The position numbers were made by a program, and so were the translations under genes. Shown in pieces: positions 1,639 to 20,640 of a DNA stretch of 20,852 nucleotides. The stretch lies in assembly GCA_031409655.1 (NCBI GenBank), contig JANNXQ010000056.1, positions 1 through 20,852 of the forward strand. Reading direction: 5' to 3'. Position 1 is the stretch's first letter. Each line of letters starts with the position of its first letter. The notes below the pieces were generated by a model. That model worked only from the letters and a program-made list of their open reading frames with translations. It had not been told where the DNA came from and searched no databases. This stretch comes from Chthoniobacteraceae bacterium (GTDB lineage: Bacteria > Verrucomicrobiota > Verrucomicrobiia > Chthoniobacterales > Chthoniobacteraceae).

Positions 1639-3009
1639 TTACCGCGCAGAAGGGAGAACCTTTGCAACCTTACTCTGCAATATCACCCACGCCGCGAGCG
1701 GCGGGAGGGCGACGAAGGCGCGGGTGAGAAGATTCGGCTGCCACGCGGTCCAGAGCGGCGTCGTCTCCCAGAGAAGCAAGGAGGAAAGCGCGCTGAGCGA
1801 AAGGATGGTCCAGGCGTGCTGTCCGCGCCAGACGGCGAAGGGGAGAATCCACGTGACATACCACGGATGGAGCACGGGACTGAGGAGCAGCGCGGCGCCG
1901 AGCACCCAGAGCGCGGCACGCGGCCAATCGTCGCGCAGCTTCCACGCGCAGATCGCGACGACGATCGAAAGGACCAGCGTGAAGGGCCAGTTGCGCCCGA
2001 AAGGATTCGGACGCGTGAGGCTTTCGAGGAAACCCCAGACGAGGTCGTTGAAACGCGAGACTTCGGCGAAGGCGAGGAGCGGACGGAAGACGATGGCGGG
2101 ACCGCCGAACGGGATGCTCAGGAGCAAGGGAATGGCGACGGCGAGCACGAGCACCGGCGCCCGGCGGCGCAGCGCAAAGGCCCAGACGGGAAGGAGGAAG
2201 ATGGGCACCAACTTCAGGGCGATGGCCATCCCGAGGCCCACGGCGCTGAGGATGGCGAGGCGCCACGGACTTAGTGTGGGAGGGACACGCTCCGTCGTGT
2301 CTCCCGCAGCCGGGGTAAGTTTGGAACACGACGGAGCGTGTCCCTCCAGCTTGACCAACGCCAGGACGCTCGCGGTCAGGGCGAGCAGCATCAGGCTGTC
2401 GAAATGGCCGGCTCCCGCGAAAGCGTAAATGACGGCGGGATTCCACGCATACCAGGCGACCGAATGCGCAGGCGGGCTGCCGCGACTTTGCACCAAGGCG
2501 AGTAACAGCGCGACGGTGAACAGATCCGCGAAGATGAAGGCCAGCTTGAAAAAATAGGCATTGGGAGAAAGGCGCGCCAGACCGGCGAGGATGATCTCGG
2601 CGAGCGGTGGATAGATCGCCGGGGAATCCTCGTGATTGATCTTCTCGCAATCCGCGTTGCGCAGCGGAGCGAGTTCCGGCGCGGAGGGCGCGAGCAGATA
2701 CGGATTTTGGCCCGCGAGCTGGACGCGGCCTTCCCAAAGGTAGCGCCAGAGATCGTCGCCAGGCGGCGTGGGCAGCGCCATCACGCGCAGCGCGATGCAG
2801 GGGATCCAGAGGAGCTTCGCGGGAGATGCCGAGGGAGTTCCGGGAAAGGTCACAACGGCCACGAGAAAGCAAACGCCGGCCAGGAGGAGCAGCGGCACGA
2901 AATGCAGCGCATTTCCCGCGACTGAAAGGTCTCCGAAGCGCACCGCCAGCCCGAGGCATGTGGCCTCGCCGACCAATGCCGCGACGAGCAGCGCGAGGCG
3001 CGGGTTCAC
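1639..3009 (-). CDS. Polytopic GT-C-fold glycosyltransferase (GT87/DUF2029-like, lipid-phosphate-sugar dependent)
   Basis: Start reassigned to GTG 3009, which overlaps the upstream TGA (GTGA). Motifs DDLWRYLWEGRVQLAGQNPY, IYPP, YAWNP, GHFD, K-x-x-P and HPWY, plus many hydrophobic helices. Confidence 0.85.
   Translation of the reverse strand: MNPRLALLVAALVGEATCLGLAVRFGDLSVAGNALHFVPLLLLAGVCFLVAVVTFPGTPSASPAKLLWIPCIALRVMALPTPPGDDLWRYLWEGRVQLAGQNPYLLAPSAPELAPLRNADCEKINHEDSPAIYPPLAEIILAGLARLSPNAYFFKLAFIFADLFTVALLLALVQSRGSPPAHSVAWYAWNPAVIYAFAGAGHFDSLMLLALTASVLALVKLEGHAPSCSKLTPAAGDTTERVPPTLSPWRLAILSAVGLGMAIALKLVPIFLLPVWAFALRRRAPVLVLAVAIPLLLSIPFGGPAIVFRPLLAFAEVSRFNDLVWGFLESLTRPNPFGRNWPFTLVLSIVVAICAWKLRDDWPRAALWVLGAALLLSPVLHPWYVTWILPFAVWRGQHAWTILSLSALSSLLLWETTPLWTAWQPNLLTRAFVALPPLAAWVILQSKVAKVLPSAR
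2279..2347. repeat. REP-doublet (REPIN)-like inverted repeat inside the GT-C CDS
   Basis: GGAGGGACACGCTCCGTCGTGT (2279-2300) and its exact reverse complement ACACGACGGAGCGTGTCCCTCC (2326-2347), 25-bp spacer. Each arm starts with GGAG and is itself a small hairpin (ACACG..CGTGT). Confidence 0.85.
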
Positions 3010-5618
3010 GCGGGGGGCGCCGGCTTGCTCGCGGAGCCGAAGACGCGCAGGAGTTCGCAATGCCCGGCAGCCGCGATCGCCAGATCCGCCACCCGGCGTT
3101 TCAGCCGCAGGGCGCGGGAGACCAGCCAGAAGGCCCAGACAAAGAAGAGCGCCCACGGGACGATGTCGGCATTGTGCGTAAAAATCTGCCGATAGAGTAA
3201 GGCGAGCAGCACCACGGCATTGATGAGCACAGTAGTCACGACGGGCCGGAGGCGCAGGCGCAGGCGCGTCAGACACTTCGGTCCTCCGTGATATTCCGTC
3301 ACCGTGCTGAGCTGGACGCTCCAAAACTGATGTCCGTAGATCTGCACGTCCCAATCCTTCCACCCCGTATCTGTGGAGTAACTCCAGCCTTCATTTTCGA
3401 GTAACGAAAAGACCTCGGTGATCAACTGCTCCCTCCCCTGCCCCGTCTCATTCCAGAAATCGAGCTTCGAGCTGCTGCCGCCCGCGCTCCGAGCGGGCAG
3501 ATCCTCTTCCGGCTTGGCGATCACTCCCCGCGGGGTGTGCTTGTATTTGAGCCAGGTAAAGTAACGCGCCCAGCCGCGGCCGATGGGCTGCATGAAGGCG
3601 AGGAAAGCGACGAGTAACCGCGCACGAACGGTATCGAACTTCGGCTCGATGCGCGCGCTGAGCATGTAACTCAGGGCGACGACAAACGTCCCGAGGAACA
3701 TGAGCAGCGGGACCATGCGCAGCTTTTCCAGCGGAATGCCGAGCACGGCCATGAAGGCCGTGAGCGCCACCCATTCAATACTGGAAAGATAAGCCGCCAC
3801 CTCGCTCTGCGCGACGGGATAGATGGATTGGAAAAGGCCGTGACCGAAGACGCCGTGATAGATGATGGGTTTGTTGAGCAGCCAGTTGAATCGCGGCGTG
3901 CCATAGATCTGGCCCTTCCACTTCGCCGTGCCAGTGGGGCCGAAGAAGATGAGATGTTTAAAGCGCAGCATCGACTCCGCTTCACCGTAACCCTCCTGTT
4001 GCTTGCGGAAGGCCTTCATGGTGAAGCGCCGGTAGTGCCAGACGATGGCGCTCGGGGAAAAGGCGATCACCCCGCCATTGGTCTGGAGCCGCCAGCAGAA
4101 ATCCACGTCGTCGCCCGCCTTGCGATACTCGGTGTCGAAGCCGCCCACGCTCTCAAAGGCCGCGCGATGGAAGGCCATATTGCAGCCGGGGATGTGCTCC
4201 GCGACGACATCCGTGAGCAGCACGTGGCTCGGCCCGCCGGGCGCGGCGGCGACGGCGGCCTGGATCCAACTGGCCGCAGGCGGCGCGATATTTGGCCCGC
4301 CCACCCCGACGTAGTCTCCGCTGATCAGCGTGCCGACGAGATAGTAGAGCCAGTCCGGATCAGCCATGCAGTCGCTGTCGGTGTAGGCAAAGACTTCACC
4401 CGTGGCCGCATGGGCACCGGCATTGCGCGCATAGCTCAGGCCCATGTTTGGCTGCACGATGCTGATGAAACCTGGCAGACCATCGCGCCCGCCGCGCGCA
4501 TTCTGCCAGGACTCCACGATCTCCTGCGTGTGATCCTTGGAGCCATCGTCCACGAGGACGATTTCAAAGTCGGGATAAGACACCTTATCGAGCGACTCCA
4601 GACATTCGCGCAAAGTGTGTCCGCCATTATACGAACAAACGATGACGCTGACTCTGGGGTAACGTGGCAACTTCACCCGCTGCGTGATGCACCCGGCGCA
4701 GCTCATGTATTCCTTGAGCGCTTGGAAGGCCTTCTTCGGCTGCCGGTCGCGCGTCACGAGGCCGAAGGCCCAGTCCGTGATGTCGTGCCCACCGGTGAAC
4801 CATTCGTCCGTCCAGGCAAAGAAGATCGTCCCCGCAGCGCCGCCGCGCACCACGCTTTCCAGATGCCAGGAGAGCACCTCCACCTGCTGCTCTTCGGTCT
4901 TGCGGATGGTATCGAGGCCAAATTCTCCGAAGATCAGCGGCCGGTCCTCGGCGAGATTTTGCAAGCGCGCGAGGTACTTCTCAAAGTCATTCTGCCGCTC
5001 CAGATAGACATTGAAGGAGCAGAAATCCACATTTGCCGGGAGTAAGTACTCCGTGGGCGGGTAACTCGCGTAACTAAACAGCGGTCGCGGATCCGTGGCC
5101 CGCGAGACCCGGATCAGCTTCTCCACAAACTCCACCACCCGCCGCGCCCCGAGCCAGCGGACCATCGTCGTCGGGATTTCATTGCCCACGAGATAGGCGA
5201 AGATCGCCGCGTGCCCGCGATTCTGCGCCACGCCGGCGCGGATCGTCTCGATGATCTGCCGCCGCATCGCGGGTTGATTGAGAAATTCGATGTGCTCGGC
5301 CCAGGGGATCGAGATCAGCACCCGCAGATGGAACTGCTGGGCGAGATCCAGGAACCAGCGCGGCGGGATGTGATAGATGCGCAGGAGATTGATCCCGAGT
5401 TCCTGCATGAGGGTAAAATCTTTCCGCGCCTTCTCCGGATCGCCCACAAAATCCCCCACCTCATCCGGCGCAAAAGGCCCGTAGGTCACGCCCTTGATGA
5501 ACCATTTCCTTTCCCCCTCGAAGAAGAATTTCGCCCGCACGCGGATGGGCTCCAACTCTGGAAGGGGCGCCGGCGGGGGCAGATCCGTCGGGGCGATGGG
5601 CGCTAAAGTCTCAGGCAT
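3006..5618 (-). CDS. Bifunctional protein: N-terminal clan GH-A (GH2/GH5-like) TIM-barrel glycoside hydrolase + GT2 glycosyltransferase + C-terminal membrane region
   Basis: GH part: KGVTYGPF, GINLLRIY, VGNE (acid/base), FGEFG (nucleophile), WTDEW. GT2 part: VSVIVCSYN, VDDGSKD, GLSYARNAG, YTDSD (DxD), GCNMAF, GGFD, GDDVD. Transmembrane helices follow. Confidence 0.9.
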   Translation of the reverse strand: MPETLAPIAPTDLPPPAPLPELEPIRVRAKFFFEGERKWFIKGVTYGPFAPDEVGDFVGDPEKARKDFTLMQELGINLLRIYHIPPRWFLDLAQQFHLRVLISIPWAEHIEFLNQPAMRRQIIETIRAGVAQNRGHAAIFAYLVGNEIPTTMVRWLGARRVVEFVEKLIRVSRATDPRPLFSYASYPPTEYLLPANVDFCSFNVYLERQNDFEKYLARLQNLAEDRPLIFGEFGLDTIRKTEEQQVEVLSWHLESVVRGGAAGTIFFAWTDEWFTGGHDITDWAFGLVTRDRQPKKAFQALKEYMSCAGCITQRVKLPRYPRVSVIVCSYNGGHTLRECLESLDKVSYPDFEIVLVDDGSKDHTQEIVESWQNARGGRDGLPGFISIVQPNMGLSYARNAGAHAATGEVFAYTDSDCMADPDWLYYLVGTLISGDYVGVGGPNIAPPAASWIQAAVAAAPGGPSHVLLTDVVAEHIPGCNMAFHRAAFESVGGFDTEYRKAGDDVDFCWRLQTNGGVIAFSPSAIVWHYRRFTMKAFRKQQEGYGEAESMLRFKHLIFFGPTGTAKWKGQIYGTPRFNWLLNKPIIYHGVFGHGLFQSIYPVAQSEVAAYLSSIEWVALTAFMAVLGIPLEKLRMVPLLMFLGTFVVALSYMLSARIEPKFDTVRARLLVAFLAFMQPIGRGWARYFTWLKYKHTPRGVIAKPEEDLPARSAGGSSSKLDFWNETGQGREQLITEVFSLLENEGWSYSTDTGWKDWDVQIYGHQFWSVQLSTVTEYHGGPKCLTRLRLRLRPVVTTVLINAVVLLALLYRQIFTHNADIVPWALFFVWAFWLVSRALRLKRRVADLAIAAAGHCELLRVFGSASKPAPPA

Positions 5619-12737: not shown

Positions 12738-14741
12738 TTAGTTCGGCAGCGGCAGGGAGACGCGCACGAGTCCGTTCTGGCCGGCCTGCGAGGGCTCGAT
12801 CTCGATGGTGCCGCGGTGGCTTTCGATGATCTTGCGCGAGACCGTGAGCCCGATGCCGAGCCCGACGGTGCGGGTGGAGAAAAAGGGTTCCGGCGCGCGG
12901 CAGGCGGCTTCATTGGTGAAGCCTTTGCCGGTGTCGCGCACCTCCACGTCCAGGCGGTGATTACCCGTATTATCCTCCCGCAGCTTCACCGAGACGTTTG
13001 GATCATCGGGGTTCGCTTGCAGGGCATTAAGGATGATCTCGGAGAAGGCGTGCCGGAGCGCCGCGTGGTCGCCAGAGACTTTCCAGGGTGCCAGGTCTTT
13101 GTTGAAGCTGAGTTGAGCGACCTTTTTCCCCGGATGAAAAGTGTGGGCGTCGTGGAAGGCCTCGACGATGAGGTCGGCGACGTTCACCGATTCGCGGAAG
13201 TCGGCCGCCCATTCGCGAGCGAGGAAGGCCATTTGATTCGCGAGCCGGGAAATGCGCCGCACTCCGCTGGCCATGGCGTGCGAGAGGGAGTCCTGAAATT
13301 CCGGATCACCAATGGATTCCTTGAGCAATTGCTGGTGGGTGGACAGCGGGACGAGGGAGTTGCCGATCTCATGGGCGAGATGTTCGGCCATCGATTTCAC
13401 GAGCCGCAGATTCGAGGTTTCGATCTCGAGCTTCTGCGCGCGTTCGTGCTCGGTGACGTCTTCGATGCGCACGAGGGCCGCATTCCCACCGGCCGCTTCC
13501 GAGGCGCGGAAGGGGCGCACTTCGATGGTGAAGGTCTGGTCCGGCGCGTGGGTAAATTGATAGCGCAACGGCGGGCAGCCGACGCCGGTCTTCAGGGCCG
13601 TGAAGATGACGCTGCCGAGTTGCTGCGGGAGATCGGCGAATTCGAGCTGGGTCTTGCCGGGACGATCCTTGAGGAAGATTGCGCGCGCGGCGGAGTTCGC
13701 GTGGAGGGTGCCGAGATTCGTGCCGATGACCACACACCCACTGCCGAGATGCCCGAGGATATCCGTGACCATGGCCTCGTTTGCGGCGAGTCGGTCGTGC
13801 GTCCACGAATTGCGAATCGCGAGGCCCACCTCCTCGAGCATGTGGAAGATAATGCCCAACTCGTCGTTCGAATACGGCACGCCGGTCAGGCGCTCATCGA
13901 AGACGGCAACGCCGATCAGCGATTCGCGATCGAGAATCGGAATGGCCACCTGGGCACCGAGAAGCTGGAGTTCCTTCGCGATCTCGCGGTTCGACTGCGC
14001 CTCGGGCCCATTTGCCCGGAGGATGCGTCCCTGGCGGTGCATGTAGGCGCCGATGCCCGTGCGCAAAGAGAGCGCAAAGCGCTGGAGGATCACTTGATCA
14101 ATGCCAATCGCACAAGCCGCGCGCAGCGAGCGATCCTCCTGCGAAAAGGCGCCGCCACCAGTGACGCTCCCGGGTTTGCGGAGGAAAACGATCGCGCGAT
14201 TCACGCCGATGATTTCGCGCAGCGGCAGAAGGAAGTGCTTGAGCAGCGCGTCCGACTCGAGGCCATGCGGGAGCATGCCCGAGAACCGCCGGAGGGCCTC
14301 GAGCGCCCGGATCGGCTCGGGCTCCTGACGCAGCGTGATCTCGCGGGTCGCGGGCTGATGAACTGGCTGGGGAACGGTGTCGCTCGCCTTGATCAGCCGG
14401 TCGAGCAGGCTGTGGAGCAATTTCACCCGGATGGGCTTGGTGAGCACATGCGCCACGCCATTCAGATACGCCTCCTCTTCCCACTCCCAATCCTTCGTCG
14501 CCACATAGACCAGCACCGGACAGGTCTCATCGTGGCTGCGGATTTCCTCGATCGCGCGAATCGCCCGCGCATCCGTCTGAACCGCATCGAGGATGGCCAC
14601 ATCGACCACGCCGCGGGCGAGCAGCGCCTCGGCCTCGGACACCTCGGCCTTGGTGATGATTTGGAACTCGGCTTCGTCCAGCACCGCCTGGATCGCGCTC
14701 GCCAAGGAGAGTTGTCGGGTAACGACGAGCAGCGTTCGCAT
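12738..14741 (-). CDS. Cytoplasmic hybrid histidine kinase: atypical receiver - GAF - PAS - HisKA - HATPase
   Basis: REC: LLVVTRQ..DVAILD..LTKPI. GAF: AQVAIPILDRESLIGV..YSNDEL. PAS: SGCVVIG..ANSAARAIF. H-box LAHEIGNSL, N-box ILNALQA, DTGKG, FFST, GLGIGL. Its ATG overlaps the upstream stop (TAATG). Confidence 0.92.
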   Translation of the reverse strand: MRTLLVVTRQLSLASAIQAVLDEAEFQIITKAEVSEAEALLARGVVDVAILDAVQTDARAIRAIEEIRSHDETCPVLVYVATKDWEWEEEAYLNGVAHVLTKPIRVKLLHSLLDRLIKASDTVPQPVHQPATREITLRQEPEPIRALEALRRFSGMLPHGLESDALLKHFLLPLREIIGVNRAIVFLRKPGSVTGGGAFSQEDRSLRAACAIGIDQVILQRFALSLRTGIGAYMHRQGRILRANGPEAQSNREIAKELQLLGAQVAIPILDRESLIGVAVFDERLTGVPYSNDELGIIFHMLEEVGLAIRNSWTHDRLAANEAMVTDILGHLGSGCVVIGTNLGTLHANSAARAIFLKDRPGKTQLEFADLPQQLGSVIFTALKTGVGCPPLRYQFTHAPDQTFTIEVRPFRASEAAGGNAALVRIEDVTEHERAQKLEIETSNLRLVKSMAEHLAHEIGNSLVPLSTHQQLLKESIGDPEFQDSLSHAMASGVRRISRLANQMAFLAREWAADFRESVNVADLIVEAFHDAHTFHPGKKVAQLSFNKDLAPWKVSGDHAALRHAFSEIILNALQANPDDPNVSVKLREDNTGNHRLDVEVRDTGKGFTNEAACRAPEPFFSTRTVGLGIGLTVSRKIIESHRGTIEIEPSQAGQNGLVRVSLPLPN

Positions 14742-16903
14742 TATGCTAGAGGAAGGATCGTTGGCATCGTTTGGGTGATCTGGCGGCTGGGGAGGTCAAC
14801 CTGCACAGTTGTTCCTTTTTTGAGCTGGCTGGCAATCGAAAGATTGCCGCCGTGCAGATTGACAATTTTGCGGCAGATCGCGAGTCCGAGTCCGAAGCCG
14901 CGATTCTCGTCGCCCTTATTTTTCGTCGTGAAATAGGGGGTCAGGACGCGCCCGAGATTTTCTTTGGAAATGCCCTCGCCTTGATCGATCACCCGGATGC
15001 GCAACCAGTCGCGCTGCACTTCCGTCTTGGCGAGTTGCTCAAGCCGCACCTGAATCGTGGATTGCGGCGGCGAGGCGTCGATGGCGTTGGCGATCAGATT
15101 CGCAAAGAGCCGCTGCAGGAGCACATCGTCCATCTCGATCGACACTTCATCGGGCGCGGCCACGACGATCTCGACCTGCTTGTCCCGGCTGGCAATGGCC
15201 AGATCGGCCGCGTGTTTTAGGAGGAGATCCAACCGATCGACCTGGATGTCCGGCCGGAGATGTTCGGAAAAGAAGAGTGCCTCTTTGATGTAGGCGCGCA
15301 TCGTCTTCACATTTCGCAGAGCCACCGGGAGCAGCTCTTCGTTTAAGGTGGAGTCGGGTCCGACCTCCGCGGAAAGTTGCAGCAAGGTGGAAACGGGCGT
15401 GAGCAGATTGTTCAGATCGTGCGCCATCCCACGCGACATCCGTCCGAGGAGATCGAGTTCCTGATTCTGCCGGAGCTGGTCCTTCAGCCGGAGCTGGTTC
15501 ACCATGAGGCTGAGATTCTTCACCAGCGCCACGAGCAGCGTGATATCCGTGCCCGAATAGGTGTCGCCGTCCTTCTTCGCGCCGACGAGGAAGAGGCCAA
15601 AGGGCTCATTTTGGAAAGTGAGGGGGAAACAGAACTCCGCGGCGAAGGCCACCAACTGCTTCCGGGCCAGCCGCTCCACGCTGCGCACTCCAGGCCGCAA
15701 ATACTTCGCATCAATCGCCAGGTACTCCGCCTTCTCCCACTCGAAATACTGAAACACCGGTGAGTTCACCTTCAAATCCTCCACCTGTCTCCCGGCCTCC
15801 CCGGGATGGGCGCGGTGGATGGTGAAAGCGTGCTGCGACTCATCGCGCAGGATGATCGAGTAACTGGTGATCGAAAGGGTGCGCACGAGGATGTCGTGCA
15901 GGTCGTCGAGCAGGGCTTCGAGGTCTTCGTACCAGATCATGCTCTCGATGAATCCGCGCACGCGGTCGCCGGATTCGAAGCGATCACCCCTCAATCCGGA
16001 GTCCAATCTTTCCCCGATTCCTCCGAGCAGTCGGGGGAAAAGGATGGTGCCGATCAGGGTGCTCAGCATCAAGACGGCGAGGGAGCTTGAGAACGAGAGA
16101 AAGGTGAACTCCATCGGGGCGCAGGCCGTAATCATGATCTGGAGAATGAGCCCGATCAGAAAAAGAAAGATGAACCGCACGAAATGCGCAGTCCGCCGGC
16201 CGAGGGCGATGTGGACATCGAGGAGCTGATGCTGGAGGACGCTGTAGCCGACGATGATGCCGTAGAAGACGGCGGCGATACTCCCGATGGGATAGATCGG
16301 CGTATTCAGGATCGGATACTTCTCGATCCCGAGGATCGGCAGGATGTCATTCGATCCCAAGACGACGATGAGCGTCTGCGCGATGATCAGGGCGTCGAGG
16401 CGCTTCCGGCGGATGGGCGGCAACCTGGAGCGACTTTTCAGGAGCATGAAAATCGCTGCGGTGCTTTGCAGATAGGCGCACGCGTAAATCCAGAAACCCA
16501 CTCCCGCTACCGAGTACCAAGCGTAGCCGACGTGGTGTACATCGGAGATGAAGAGACCCTGCGAGTGCATGATCGCGAGGCCAAAGTGGAGGACGTACAG
16601 TGCGGCGATGATCCGCCCGGCGCGCACCTGCGCGATGAGCACGGAAAGATGCAGCGAGGCGATCGGGAGGAAAATGACGCCATACTGCAGGATGGTCGCC
16701 CAGAAGAAGGCCTGAGGCTTATTCGCCGGGTCGCCATCCAGGAGAAAGAGGAAGAAGGTGCAAAGATTCCAAGTGGTGATGCACAGCCCCCAGAAGAAAT
16801 AGACCTGGCTCAGGCGCGACTTGCGGTCGCTGGTCAGGACGAAGATTGAGAGCGCAAAATTGCAGATTGCGCCGATCAACGGGGCGAGGCTGAGCGAGTT
16901 CAT
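14741..16903 (-). CDS. Membrane sensor histidine kinase: HisKA_7TM-like N-terminal region - GAF - HisKA - HATPase
   Basis: Start ATG 16903 overlaps the ketosynthase stop (ATGA). The first ~290 aa are polytopic. GAF: FCFPL..GLFLVGAKKDGDTYSGTDITLL. H-box MAHDLNNLL, NLIANAIDA, DQGEG, YFTTK, GFGLGL. Confidence 0.92.
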   Translation of the reverse strand: MNSLSLAPLIGAICNFALSIFVLTSDRKSRLSQVYFFWGLCITTWNLCTFFLFLLDGDPANKPQAFFWATILQYGVIFLPIASLHLSVLIAQVRAGRIIAALYVLHFGLAIMHSQGLFISDVHHVGYAWYSVAGVGFWIYACAYLQSTAAIFMLLKSRSRLPPIRRKRLDALIIAQTLIVVLGSNDILPILGIEKYPILNTPIYPIGSIAAVFYGIIVGYSVLQHQLLDVHIALGRRTAHFVRFIFLFLIGLILQIMITACAPMEFTFLSFSSSLAVLMLSTLIGTILFPRLLGGIGERLDSGLRGDRFESGDRVRGFIESMIWYEDLEALLDDLHDILVRTLSITSYSIILRDESQHAFTIHRAHPGEAGRQVEDLKVNSPVFQYFEWEKAEYLAIDAKYLRPGVRSVERLARKQLVAFAAEFCFPLTFQNEPFGLFLVGAKKDGDTYSGTDITLLVALVKNLSLMVNQLRLKDQLRQNQELDLLGRMSRGMAHDLNNLLTPVSTLLQLSAEVGPDSTLNEELLPVALRNVKTMRAYIKEALFFSEHLRPDIQVDRLDLLLKHAADLAIASRDKQVEIVVAAPDEVSIEMDDVLLQRLFANLIANAIDASPPQSTIQVRLEQLAKTEVQRDWLRIRVIDQGEGISKENLGRVLTPYFTTKNKGDENRGFGLGLAICRKIVNLHGGNLSIASQLKKGTTVQVDLPSRQITQTMPTILPLA

Positions 16904-18180
16904 GACTGCGCCTCGAACCGCCGGAGCAGCAAACAAGCGTTCTTTCCGCCAAATCCACTGCTCATGTTCAGGGCCACTCGGATCGGGTAAGTGCGCGCCG
17001 TGCCCCGGACGTAGTCCAAGTCACAACCGGGGGCCGCGGTTTGCAAATTGATCGTGGGCGGCATCATTTGGTGATGGATCGCAAGCGCGCAGACGGCGGA
17101 CTCTACGGCGCCAGCCGCCGCCATGAGATGTCCGGTCACTGGCTTGGTGGCACTCACTCCCACGCGCTGGGCATGCTCGCCGAAGAAGGTCTTGATGGCC
17201 TTGCTCTCGACCACATCATTCGCCTCCGTCGCGGTTCCGTGGGCATTGATGTAATCCACTTCGCTCCGGTCGATGCGCGCCCTCCGGAAGGCCTTGTCCA
17301 TCGCTCGGAGGATCCCGACGCCTTCCGGGTGCAGGGCCACGGGATGGTAGCTCTCGCAGGAATGCCCATGCGCCAGCACCTCGGCATAGATGCGGGCATT
17401 CCGCGCGAGCGCGTGGCTGAGCTCCTCCAGCACCAGAAATGCGGAACCTTCGCCGAGGATAAAGCCGTCCCGCTCGACATCGAAGGGACGCATCGCGTGC
17501 TTCGGGTCGCCAGGCCGCCGACTCACTACTTTTGCCTGGCAGAAGGTCGCCAGGACGGTCGGAGTGAGGGGCGCCTCCGCGCCGCCCGCGATCATCACGT
17601 CCACATCGTCATTCTGGATCATCCCGAGCGCATACCCCATCACATCATTCCCCGAAGCGCTGCCGGTGCTGAGGGTCACCGCGTGCCCGCGCACTCCCAG
17701 TCGCAGGGCGATCTCACCGCTGCCCGCTCCCGCATACCCATTGAGGAGCGCAGCCAGGGTCAGGGCGCGGTAGCCTCCGCCAGCGATGGCCTCCACGCCC
17801 CGGGTCACGGTTTCATTGGTGCTTACGGAAGTTCCCTCCACTACCCCCACCCGATCCGGGTCGAGCGCGGAGCAGACGATCCCAGCATCCGCGACGGCTT
17901 CGGCGGCCGCGGCGAGCGCATAGAGATTTGAACGGTCGAGCCGGCGTGCAGCCTTGGCCTCCATGTAGCGGGAGGGATCGAAATCTCGGATTTCACACGC
18001 GATCCGCACCGGGCAATCGCCGGGATGAAAGCGCGTGAGGGGCCCCGCCGCACTTTCGCCGAACCGGATCGACTTCCAAAAATCTTTCGGTCCGTTGCCG
18101 TTTGGCGCGATGACCCCGATTCCCGTGATGACCACGCGGCGAAAGTCCGCGGATTCGGGATGGTTCGTGGCGCTACTCAT
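16900..18180 (-). CDS. FabF-like beta-ketoacyl-ACP synthase homolog with catalytic Cys replaced by Ser
   Basis: Start ATG 18180 (ATGA overlap). Motifs RRVVITGIG, AGGAEAP, RPFDVERDGFILGEG, YINAHGTAT, KPVTGHLMAAAG, PPTIN, SGFGGKNA. The active-site loop reads STGSASG instead of TACAS/TG. Confidence 0.9.
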   Translation of the reverse strand: MSSATNHPESADFRRVVITGIGVIAPNGNGPKDFWKSIRFGESAAGPLTRFHPGDCPVRIACEIRDFDPSRYMEAKAARRLDRSNLYALAAAAEAVADAGIVCSALDPDRVGVVEGTSVSTNETVTRGVEAIAGGGYRALTLAALLNGYAGAGSGEIALRLGVRGHAVTLSTGSASGNDVMGYALGMIQNDDVDVMIAGGAEAPLTPTVLATFCQAKVVSRRPGDPKHAMRPFDVERDGFILGEGSAFLVLEELSHALARNARIYAEVLAHGHSCESYHPVALHPEGVGILRAMDKAFRRARIDRSEVDYINAHGTATEANDVVESKAIKTFFGEHAQRVGVSATKPVTGHLMAAAGAVESAVCALAIHHQMMPPTINLQTAAPGCDLDYVRGTARTYPIRVALNMSSGFGGKNACLLLRRFEAQS

Positions 18181-18746
18181 CGGACGCCCGGCCACCTGTA
18201 AGGAAGAAAGGCGGGCGTGGCGCTCATGTACTTGCGATAGGCACCGCCGAATTTCGCAATCAGGGCCGGCTCTTCCAGGCGCAGGCGGTAGGCCAGGGCC
18301 GGCAGGTAGAGGAGTGGCACGAGGAGCAGGACCAGCACCGCTTTCAAGATCAGCGCCACAGCGAGCAACTCGAGGAGCATGGAAAAGTAGGTGGGGTGCC
18401 GCATCCACCGGAAGGGGCCTTCCTGGACAAACTCGTGTTCGGCGCGGATCTCGACGTGGAGGCTCCAAAATTTCCCCAACGCCGCGATCGCCCGGCGGCG
18501 GATGATGAAGGACGCCACTCCGCACGCCACGCCTGCGCTAAACCAAGGCCATTCCAGCCTCTGACCACGCACGAAATATTCCACCACGGCTCCGATCCAG
18601 ATCGCCGTGCCGACGAGCCAGAAGAGCCGCAGCGACCACCGCTCGCGCACGGGGCCGGAAATCACCTGGCGCTTGGTTCCGAGTTCCACCATCCGCGCCG
18701 CGTAAAGGACGGCGACGGCGAGCAAAGGCAGGGCAAAGGCGAGCAT
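18177..18746 (-). CDS. Isoprenylcysteine carboxyl methyltransferase (ICMT/PEMT) family membrane methyltransferase
   Basis: ALGKFWS, EHEFVQEGPFRWMRHPTY (RHPxY), EEPALIAKFGGAYRKY, PAFLP; several TM helices. Confidence 0.9.
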   Translation of the reverse strand: MLAFALPLLAVAVLYAARMVELGTKRQVISGPVRERWSLRLFWLVGTAIWIGAVVEYFVRGQRLEWPWFSAGVACGVASFIIRRRAIAALGKFWSLHVEIRAEHEFVQEGPFRWMRHPTYFSMLLELLAVALILKAVLVLLLVPLLYLPALAYRLRLEEPALIAKFGGAYRKYMSATPAFLPYRWPGVR

Positions 18747-18903
18747 GGATTTTGAAGGGGGAGAAGTTGGTGCGTCGGTGCAACGCGAAGCGGATGTGGA
18801 CCAGAGGGGAGTGGAGAGTCAAATCGGATTTACCAATCTGCCAACCCGCGCGAGAGGGCTCGCTGCCGGAGTAAAACCGCGCGTGGGGCGATCCGTCATC
18901 AAT

Positions 18904-18950
18904 GCCATCTTTATGGCTTCACTCATCATTTATGAAGAATCAAAGATGGC
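18904..18950. promoter_or_regulatory. AT-rich inverted repeat / hairpin upstream of the ICMT-KS-kinase operon
   Basis: GCCATCTTT (18904-18912) / AAAGATGGC (18942-18950), with inner CTTCA/TGAAG. Confidence 0.5.
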
Positions 18951-18980
18951 GATCTGGAGGCAACGACGCAAGGATGCGCT

Positions 18981-19619
18981 TCAGCTCGGGAGATGGAGCG
19001 TGCAAGTGTAAAGGCCCGACGCAAACTGCTGCTCCCGCCGCACCGGCACTCCGAGCACCCGCTGGAACATCTCGCCCTCCAGCCGGGCGACGATCGGAAA
19101 GGTCTGGAGCAGATCGAGGATCGGCGAGTGATGCTCCACGATCCGCAGCCCGCCACCTGCGTCCGTCTCGAGTTCGCTCATGTAGCCATCGAGATCGCGG
19201 AGATGTACGAGCCGCTCCGCGCGTTCCGGCAGTGTGTCGCCTTTCATCTTTTCGAGATACCGCTCCGTGTACCGCTGGAAGACTACGAGCAGCAGCTTTT
19301 CAGGCGCGGTCTGGCCGTAAAGTTTCTGCGCCGCGGCCAGCAGCGCGATCGTCGCTTCATTGCTCGTCGTCGGGAAAAGTTCATGCGCGCGCGGGGTGAG
19401 CCGGTAGAGCAGGCGCGGCCGGCCTTTGGGCTGCGGCTCCCGCCAGGTGTCGAGCAGGCCGCGTTTTTCCAGATCCGTGCAGATATCCTTCACGCCCATG
19501 TAGCTCATCTTCACCCGCTCGGCGATCACCGGCACGGCGAGACCCTGGGTGCGCTTCAGTTCATTGAGCACTTTCAGCCGCGCACTGCGTCCGACGGTTT
19601 GGATGAGACGCTGCTTCAG
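18981..19619 (-). CDS. Winged-HTH transcriptional regulator, SufR-like/COG2345 type (start uncertain)
   Basis: RLKVLNELKRTQGLAVPVIAERVKMSYMGVKDICTDLEKRGLL..GRPRLLYRLT..ELFP, followed by a V4R-like C-terminus (GYMSE..IVEHHSPI..E..F..VLG). The globular part begins at LKQRL (CTG 19619); alternative GTG 19673. Confidence 0.85.
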   Translation of the reverse strand: MKQRLIQTVGRSARLKVLNELKRTQGLAVPVIAERVKMSYMGVKDICTDLEKRGLLDTWREPQPKGRPRLLYRLTPRAHELFPTTSNEATIALLAAAQKLYGQTAPEKLLLVVFQRYTERYLEKMKGDTLPERAERLVHLRDLDGYMSELETDAGGGLRIVEHHSPILDLLQTFPIVARLEGEMFQRVLGVPVRREQQFASGLYTCTLHLPS

Positions 19620-19631
19620 GGGGGCGAAGAG

Positions 19632-19737
19632 GTTGAGAGTTGAGAGTCGATGGTTGAGAGCCGCGCCGGTCACAGCCGCACGCCCGGCACTCGGTCGGCA
19701 GTTTGCGGCGCTCAACTCTCAACTATCAACTCTCAAC
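19632..19737. repeat. Inverted pair of heptamer tandem arrays (TCTCAAC-type)
   Basis: Left 19632-19664: GTTGAGA GTTGAGA GTCGATG GTTGAGA GCCGC. Right 19705-19737: GCGGC GCTCAAC TCTCAAC TATCAAC TCTCAAC. 28 of 33 positions are complementary. Confidence 0.85.
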
Positions 19738-20523
19738 TTACTTCGCGCCGAGCGCCCCGAAATGCTGCAGCGCCTCCACCACGCCCGCACTGCAATCACC
19801 CGTGGCCACATATCCGCCGGCCTCGCGCACCGCGCGCTTCACTGCCTCGCAAGCATTCGCCGGGCAGGCGACCCATTGCGCGAAGCGACCGTCGAGCATC
19901 GGGATGTCGTTGTAGTGATCGCCCGCCGCGAAGACCTCCCCGCGCTCGAGCCCGGTCAGCCGCGCGAGTTCACCGAGCGCCGTGCCTTTGCTGTAGGCCT
20001 CGTGGCAAAAGCGCAGGTAGATCGTGTTTCGCTGGAAATTAAATCCTGGCACCCGCGACTGCTCGCGTTCGAGAAAGACACACACGTCATCCATCTGCGC
20101 ATCCGTCTCCGTCACGATGCCCACCAGCCGCTCCCCATCCCGCTCAAAATGCGCCCACGGTTTGCCATCGAACTCAGCGTGGATGTCCTTCAGCAGATCG
20201 CTCGCTTCCGTAAAGAGCCAATCGTGATCCGCCGCGCAGCGCTTATTCCAATCGCCGAAGTCCTGCCACTTCCCATCCGATCCACGGTGAAAGACCTCCC
20301 GCTCCGCGGTCAGCACGTAGTCAGGCTCAAAATCGAAATCAAACTCCCGCAGCCCCGCCTCGATGTGCCAGAGCACCCGGCCCGTATTCACCGCCCATTG
20401 CACGCCCTTGGCCCGCAGCGCGCCGATGGCGGAGAAAAATTCCGGCGTCACCGGCGGGATGGCGCCGTGCTCGACGAGCGTGCCGTCGAAGTCCGTGCTG
20501 ATCAATTTGATGGAGGCATTCAT
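19738..20523 (-). CDS. HAD superfamily subfamily IIB (Cof/sucrose-phosphatase-like) hydrolase
   Basis: Start ATG 20523. Motif I DFDGT, motif II NTGR, motif III SKGTAL, motif IV GDHYND, and ANA. Confidence 0.92.
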   Translation of the reverse strand: MNASIKLISTDFDGTLVEHGAIPPVTPEFFSAIGALRAKGVQWAVNTGRVLWHIEAGLREFDFDFEPDYVLTAEREVFHRGSDGKWQDFGDWNKRCAADHDWLFTEASDLLKDIHAEFDGKPWAHFERDGERLVGIVTETDAQMDDVCVFLEREQSRVPGFNFQRNTIYLRFCHEAYSKGTALGELARLTGLERGEVFAAGDHYNDIPMLDGRFAQWVACPANACEAVKRAVREAGGYVATGDCSAGVVEALQHFGALGAK

Positions 20524-20611
20524 GGGAAAGTGGAGATGCTGGAAGTAATACGTAGCCAATTGCGTGCGACGCGTCAGAATTCCTGTCGAACCGCTCGGTG
20601 AAGGCGGCGAC

Positions 20612-20640
20612 ACTCGACTCTCGATCTCCAACTCTCAACT
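20612..20640. repeat. Third, degenerate heptamer array
   Basis: ACTCGAC TCTCGAT CTCCAAC TCTCAAC T, directly upstream of ATG 20644. Confidence 0.65.

Follow-up and report, generated by a model that had tools for sequence, protein, structure and literature searches.

The 20,852-nucleotide stretch of DNA analysed here (the window; contig JANNXQ010000056.1 of assembly GCA_031409655.1, positions 1 to 20,852), which originates from a Chthoniobacteraceae bacterium, harbours on its reverse strand four consecutive genes in which a ketosynthase (KS) of the FabF fold and the seven-transmembrane (7TM) sensing domain of the adjoining histidine kinase form a linked and co-varying pair. Judging from sequence comparisons, this pair probably serves to make and to perceive a diffusible lipid signal, of which there would be many specificity groups. 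The KS (426 aa, positions 16900..18180), a predicted signal synthase matched by the N- and C-terminal ketoacyl-synt families of Pfam, is followed by the membrane sensor kinase HK1 (720 aa, 14741..16903), composed of HisKA_7TM, two further helices, GAF, HisKA (with His495) and HATPase_c, the sensing domain proper being residues 1-232 (16208..16903). The remaining genes encode an ICMT-family membrane methyltransferase (189 aa, 18177..18746; Pfam PF04140, E 5.7e-17) and a soluble kinase, HK2 (667 aa, 12738..14741), with an atypical receiver, a GAF domain and a kinase core containing His457. An earlier, sequence-only reading of this DNA had described four same-strand genes with overlapping stop and start codons; the ORFs and all three junctions (ATGA at 18177-18180, ATGA at 16900-16903 and TAATG at 14739-14743) were found as given, and from the overlapping codons we infer translational coupling and co-transcription of the four genes.

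Conservation of the cassette

Of 60 related genomes 30 contained HK1, as did 27 of the 36 within the family. The KS gene lies directly upstream of HK1 in 30 of the 31 fetched loci that include the HK1 N-terminus, the exception being genome G046, in which KS is on another contig. Among non-redundant KS loci with enough flanking sequence, HK1 follows KS in 91 of 92 (the single miss is a split HK1) and HK2 is present in 81 of 82. Metagenome loci selected by a kinase motif, of which 54 out of 80 were examined with redundant sequences retained, had KS directly upstream of the HK1 N-terminus in 45 of 45 cases (one inverted, one partial). When the 7TM domain was used for selection in a sample of 401 genomes from across the class, 25 matches were obtained in 24 of them, and the gene directly upstream was KS in 12, a different enzyme described below (LuxD-MT) in nine and neither of them in four. 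With KS-HK1 counts of 91/92 and 45/45, the proposed linkage of enzymes and kinases across Verrucomicrobiota was retained. The sequence-only reading had put forward ICMT and KS together as the enzyme pair; both are linked to the kinases, but ICMT precedes KS directly in 63 of 87 non-redundant loci only. Since it is optional and only loosely tracks the sensor, the core pair is taken to be KS and the 7TM domain.

The usual gene order is nrdR, a 186-aa protein without a Pfam family, HIT, ICMT (where present), KS, HK1, HK2, a FadL homologue (PF03349; in the cassette in 40 of 71 non-redundant KS loci) and a further receiver-kinase, HK3. In the source genome the cassette is in three pieces, namely nrdR-DUF-HIT on contig C47, ICMT-KS-HK1-HK2 in the window and FadL-HK3 on contig C101, while the named cultured species Chthoniobacter flavus Ellin428 carries the full cassette (locus L085). 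No gene for an acyl carrier protein (ACP) recurs in the cassette. The 186-aa protein (e.g. L065:6581-7141) is encoded between nrdR and HIT in most Chthoniobacterales loci. Both KS and HK2 are duplicated at locus L189, with one of the KS genes inverted before HK1, as a result of either rearrangement or misassembly; two cassette copies per genome bin were also noted in G003 (L032, L040) and G036 (L035, L063), which may be paralogues or bin contamination.

Shared history of the ketosynthase and the sensing domain

A common history unites KS and the 7TM domain, whereas the kinase core goes with the genes on either side. Over 72 loci the pairwise distances of KS and the 7TM domain correlate with r 0.86 (0.84 given HK2); the corresponding values are 0.41 for the 7TM domain versus the core of its own kinase and 0.89 for that core versus HK2. 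The tree congruence sought in the sequence-only reading was borne out, as the KS tree matches the tree of the sensor domain (36 shared splits of 69) and not that of the kinase core, which shares 11 splits with the sensor domain and 38 with HK2; the two halves of KS share 26. The congruence of ICMT with the sensor is only loose (partial r 0.36-0.45). In 26 disjoint close pairs, rho reached 0.96 for KS-7TM versus 0.15 for KS-HK2. In the same-genus relative L032, for instance, HK2 shows 85% and ICMT 77% identity, compared with only 48% for KS (of the Cys type, see below) and 36% for the 7TM domain. Changes between the Cys and Ser states of KS number one on the KS tree, two on the 7TM tree and nine on the HK2 tree.

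Sliding-window identities of 25 chosen pairs delimit a variable block consisting of KS and the membrane part of HK1 (16004..18180), the left edge of which lies at or before the KS start and the right one, depending on the pair, between HK1 residues about 200 and 480. Genes flanking the block on opposite sides correlate with each other at 0.80-0.84, but with KS at only 0.42-0.43. The far end of KS tracks the 7TM domain at 0.76 and the near end at 0.69. Among 88 pairs with HK2 at least 75% identical, KS and 7TM were both low in 45, both high in 42 and borderline in one, so that no clear split of the two was seen, by thresholds picked after the data had been inspected.

The ketosynthase

The model of KS (mean predicted local distance difference test score, pLDDT, 89) superimposes on FabF (4ls5) with a TM-score of 0.94 at about 43% identity. 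The FabF-like fold assigned from the sequence was therefore confirmed, yet that assignment had missed the nucleophile, which is Ser174 (codon AGC, positions 17659..17661) at the position of the catalytic Cys of FabF. Contigs from runs X1 and X2 span the AGC codon without any listed difference. Among 95 non-redundant relatives 76 carry Ser and 19 Cys, a set biased towards Ser because the best 80 of 303 were kept. His314, Lys346 and His351 are invariant (95/95), and so are Glu115 and Asp179, in place of which 11 housekeeping FabFs have Ile/Val and His/Asn, respectively. Since KS carries Ser for Cys, ordinary condensation is not to be assumed.

The possibility that KS is simply the housekeeping FabF was rejected: its family forms a clade separate from FabF, with Cys forms basal (FastTree, support 0.94), the Cys is replaced by Ser, the score against the FabF model TIGR03150 is 443, below the cut-off of 494, and the genuine FabF of the same genome is encoded elsewhere, on contig C259. 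Regions 115-152 and 201-222, which by homology to FabF we take to form the acyl pocket, have a mean identity of 43% versus about 70% in the 11 FabFs, the values for the entire protein being 58% versus 68%; by these alignments, the variation of KS concentrates in the predicted acyl pocket.

Malonyl-ACP decarboxylases of the PksF type are recognised by a Ser that replaces the Cys while the two His are retained. KS has these residues, but scores only 226 bits against the PksF-type model NF005490 (cut-off 445). HMG-CoA synthase (PF01154) was not found in the source genome (95% complete; controls matched), and neither this enzyme nor ACP or enoyl-CoA hydratase recurs among the neighbours of KS loci. 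The catalytic set is Ser-His-His and not the Cys-His-Asn of PpyS and DarB; no LuxR-type gene recurs as a neighbour of KS, the linked candidate receptor being the kinase.

A second atypical KS of the source genome (L067:11917-13741, contig C175), which has Cys and the motifs NAHASGT and AHPLGA, overlaps a gene for a polyketide-cyclase/START protein; a membrane gene of the LPG-synthase-like type lies nearby. Several KS genes come from records titled Klebsiella, Akkermansia or Proteobacteria (L108, L113-L116, L120, L134); they group with those of Verrucomicrobiota-titled records, and the titles look unreliable.

An unrelated enzyme in the same position

In family f19 (members named Opitutaceae, Didemnitutus and Lacunisphaera), the position of the KS is occupied by a 566-aa fusion protein (LuxD-MT) that joins a thioesterase of the LuxD type to a class I methyltransferase. 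Its thioesterase part matches PF02273 and structure 1tht (E 3e-23), with which the catalytic-Ser motif aligns. The fusion was detected in 32 of 201 genomes and lies directly upstream of a HisKA_7TM-GAF kinase in all 28 loci with downstream sequence (29 fetched), its stop codon overlapping or abutting the kinase gene in f19, where homologues of HK2, FadL and HK3 are arranged head to head with it. FadL is encoded at 17 of the 29 loci. The LuxD domain tracks the 7TM domain with a partial r of 0.68, as compared to 0.13 for 7TM and its own core (25 loci). Identity between the 7TM domains of the KS and LuxD-MT types is only about 20%. In three f19 genomes ICMT-KS takes the place of LuxD-MT, and genera g68 and g258 hold both types.

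Sensors without an enzyme occur as well. Genome G597 (L306, 97% complete) has an intact KS-type sensor and FadL, and the cassette KS was not found in it; 7TM kinases with no enzyme upstream were also observed at L056 (G046), L355 and L356, the last two being long hybrid kinases that adjoin a NarL/LuxR-type response regulator. In L237:6939-12080, L238 and L311-L337, LuxD-MT and the HisKA_7TM kinase precede a gene for a conserved protein of about 446 aa that is GAF-PAS-like. The related cassettes at L239:2905-14080 (G173) and L204 comprise a pair of 7TM-type kinases, a REC-GAF protein in which no ATPase domain could be recognised, two genes resembling REC-kinases and a REC-winged-helix-turn-helix regulator, a possible output.

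Methyltransferase, kinases and flanking genes

ICMT scores 62 bits against PF04140 (cut-off 24) and 74 against the protein-isoprenylcysteine equivalog NF040696, below the cut-off of 160; its residues RHPxY, E158/E159 and Y170/Y173 are kept in at least 90% of 64 sequences, and it has no Pfam match to class I methyltransferases. The HisKA_7TM label given to HK1 is appropriate for the family, of which 25 of 28 members match PF16927 (best E 9e-16), but not by Pfam for the sequence in the window, which is unmatched even at E 0.01; ESM-Atlas features yield a value of 0.96 for HisKA_7TM clusters. The model of HK1 residues 1-300 (pLDDT 89) shows seven helices together with a hairpin at 119-133, plus two additional helices. 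All of the best Foldseek rows for this model (m266526a6500a, window 16004-16903) are bundles of the G-protein-coupled receptor type, with E about 0.01 and TM about 0.5, below significance.

Pfam detects GAF (weakly), HisKA (just under the cut-off) and HATPase_c in HK1, and REC, GAF and HATPase_c in HK2. The PAS domain ascribed to the last kinase was not matched in HK2 of the window; in one distant homologue PAS_4 was detected with E 0.009. The H-boxes of HK1, HK2 and HK3 are intact. The receiver of HK2 lacks the acidic pair in 76 of 76 aligned sequences and is variable at Thr, while Asp/Glu and Lys are kept in 75 of 76 each (Asp52 and Lys102-Pro in the window); that of HK3 is canonical, with all four residue features in 35 of 35. 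Hence, of the relay envisaged earlier, the REC and GAF domains were found, but HK3, encoded outside the window, is by its residues the likelier phospho-acceptor than the atypical receiver of HK2. The source genome also encodes a second FadL-family protein (L066:7072-8253, contig C43), 40-43% identical to the cassette FadL.

Upstream of ICMT, a gap of 234 bases (18747..18980, same strand) is the presumed promoter region, in which no sigma-70 consensus was found. It is preceded on the same strand by a gene for a SufR-like winged-helix regulator (18981-19715), not found adjoining the cassette in relatives. At 19630-19745 and about 20610-20640 there are short inverted repeats (CTCTCAACT/AGTTGAGAG type), which may be a dispersed repeat, given the very high depth of contigs in metagenome runs. 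Positions 3006-5618 encode an 870-aa protein in which a GH2/GH72-like TIM barrel is fused to a GT2 glycosyltransferase and a membrane tail.

Proposed function and alternative explanations

Since KS and the 7TM domain vary as one block, they are likely to be a matched signal-maker and receptor, and as two unrelated acyl-thioester enzymes, each with a methyltransferase, occupy the same slot and each track their 7TM domain, the simplest link would be a small acyl product bound by that domain. KS would draw an acyl chain from the housekeeping acyl-ACP and load it on Ser174 (Cys in the basal forms), whereupon His314/His351 and the family-specific Glu115/Asp179 might either extend the chain once or release a small acyl product, the variable pocket setting its length or shape. 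ICMT, where present, would O-methylate the product to an ester or ether, FadL would ease its passage across the outer membrane, and the 7TM bundle would bind it and set the activity of HK1, from which phosphate may be transferred to HK3, whose receiver is canonical, while HK2 would act as an integrating kinase. Exchange of the KS-7TM block could create specificity groups, as in agr and ComQXP. The methylated acyl or lipid signal sensed by a membrane kinase, as formerly suggested, is partly supported: it gains from the linkage, the shared history, FadL and LuxD-MT, and is to be corrected for the optional ICMT and the Ser of KS.

Several observations weigh against this explanation. A Cys-to-Ser change usually cripples condensation by ketosynthases, and a third form of KS (L239, L204) has kept Cys but lost both His, as would suit a role other than catalysis. 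Of 87 KS loci, 24 lack ICMT; FadL is absent beside 31 of 71 KS and 12 of 29 LuxD-MT loci and is on another contig here. The KS cassette has no recurrent gene for a DNA-binding regulator, and the transcriptional output lies outside it. FadL shows no co-variation with KS (partial r -0.01, 33 loci). The shared history is partly to be expected because KS and 7TM are adjacent, other adjacent segments correlating at 0.57-0.81 over the 72 loci, and the pairwise distances are not independent, the loci being kin. Moreover, the pocket columns, which are fewer, have no advantage over the other columns of KS in tracking the 7TM domain (0.71 vs 0.85).

The product might instead be a membrane-resident modified lipid, similar to the alkylpyrone ethers of BpsA-BpsB, which the 7TM kinase monitors in the membrane of its own cell for feedback or contact-range kin recognition rather than density sensing. 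ICMT is a membrane enzyme, the sensor of HK1 is intramembrane and FadL is optional; according to the accessible part of PMC9827899, the substrates of BpsB-type methylases are long-chain phenolic lipids that are presumed to alter membranes. However, self-monitoring gives no clear cause for the repeated divergence of the block between close relatives and leaves the enzyme-less sensor adjoining FadL in G597 unexplained, which makes this alternative appear unlikely.

Alternatively, KS might be an intracellular accessory subunit that binds acyl-ACP or malonyl-ACP, docks to the 7TM domain from the cytoplasmic side and reports the status of fatty-acid synthesis, the co-variation then reflecting a protein interface. 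Such a role would be in line with the tolerance of Ser or Cys as the nucleophile, the His-less KS of the related cassettes and the tracking of the 7TM domain by non-pocket columns at least as well as by pocket columns. Nevertheless, the unrelated LuxD-MT fold fills the same slot and tracks its own 7TM domain, the three catalytic residues His314, Lys346 and His351 never vary, intact sensors persist without KS, the excess variation sits in the acyl pocket, and an internal sensor needs no outer-membrane FadL; we therefore regard a docked subunit as unlikely, too. That KS is a PksF-type decarboxylase or a spare FabF hitch-hiking with the kinase operon, with linkage as the only cause of co-variation, is suggested by its residue signature and by its position next to the 7TM domain, but is very improbable indeed in view of the low NF005490 score, the HMG-CoA synthase found neither in the genome nor recurring in the loci, the Cys of the basal members, the separate FabF on C259 and the lack of a clear KS/7TM split in the 88 pairs.

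Extending the synthase-receptor explanation, we tentatively suggest that HisKA_7TM-GAF kinases in general could be receptors for self-made acyl-derived signals, and that Verrucomicrobiota may possess a lipid quorum-sensing language of dozens of dialects, in which the block (an enzyme diverting acyl-ACP, namely Cys- or Ser-KS or LuxD-MT, together with the matched 7TM receptor) is swapped among close relatives on a fixed kinase relay, Ser-KS performs a new chemistry and enzyme-less receptors eavesdrop. If this were true, the HisKA_7TM domain would gain its first ligand class, Chthoniobacterales, Limisphaerales and bacteria of the Opitutaceae type would gain a candidate system of signalling between cells, and a naturally occurring serine ketosynthase would be at hand; the matched KS-7TM pairs would predict which receptor answers which enzyme. 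No cell-cell signalling in these three groups was found in the literature searched, nor was any description of the ICMT-KS-7TM kinase cassette (supplements and subscription journals lay outside the scope), and the system is apparently undescribed. In the accessible parts of the papers found, HisKA_7TM is mentioned as a listed sensor domain only, without a ligand.

Comparison with known systems

In agr and ComQXPA, a block made up of the synthase and the N-terminal part of the sensor varies as a unit, its flanks being conserved; these are peptide systems of Firmicutes, whereas the cassette belongs to diderm Verrucomicrobiota and its predicted signal is a lipid. KS resembles FabF (KAS II) in its fold and in the retained His-His-Lys, and differs from it in its clade, nucleophile, Glu115/Asp179/YP motifs and divergent pocket.

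By its gene make-up, the cassette may work like the Phc system of Ralstonia, in which, according to the accessible text of PMC8578825, a methyltransferase making a fatty-acid methyl ester, a membrane kinase and a receiver-plus-kinase protein without a DNA-binding domain are encoded in one operon (phcBSRQ), and signal-type groups follow the PhcB/PhcS sequence. As in Phc, synthase, membrane kinase and receiver-kinase are encoded together, although HK3, which has the domain set of PhcR, is on another contig in the source genome, and the LuxD-MT version would by analogy give a similar ester. Unlike Phc, where PhcB is a class I methyltransferase, the cassette employs a FabF-fold KS with an ICMT-family methylase, or the LuxD-MT fusion, in addition to a HisKA_7TM-GAF sensor, an extra atypical REC-GAF kinase and FadL.

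Photorhabdus PpyS is a stand-alone ketosynthase as well, which makes a signal from acyl thioesters with an extra glutamate as a base, has the triad C129-H281-N310 and is served by a LuxR-type receptor (PMC4578411, in its accessible part). The KS described here is likewise a predicted signal-making stand-alone enzyme, Glu115 being at most a candidate parallel to Glu105 of PpyS, but it has Ser/Cys-His-His, the FabF fold and a membrane kinase as its partner.

The sequence-only reading knew of no characterised system with the ICMT-KS enzyme pair. The available part of PMC9827899 does describe an ICMT-family O-methyltransferase, BpsB, beside the condensing enzyme BpsA, on the lipid product of which it acts; even so, BpsA is a type III polyketide synthase, no sensor is linked, and the methylase is fixed rather than optional. 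Finally, a rhizobial FadL homologue aids the sensing and uptake of long-chain acyl-homoserine lactones (PMC5977203, as far as its accessible part goes); that is a LuxR system, whereas FadL here is encoded inside a kinase cassette for which a hydrophobic signal is predicted.

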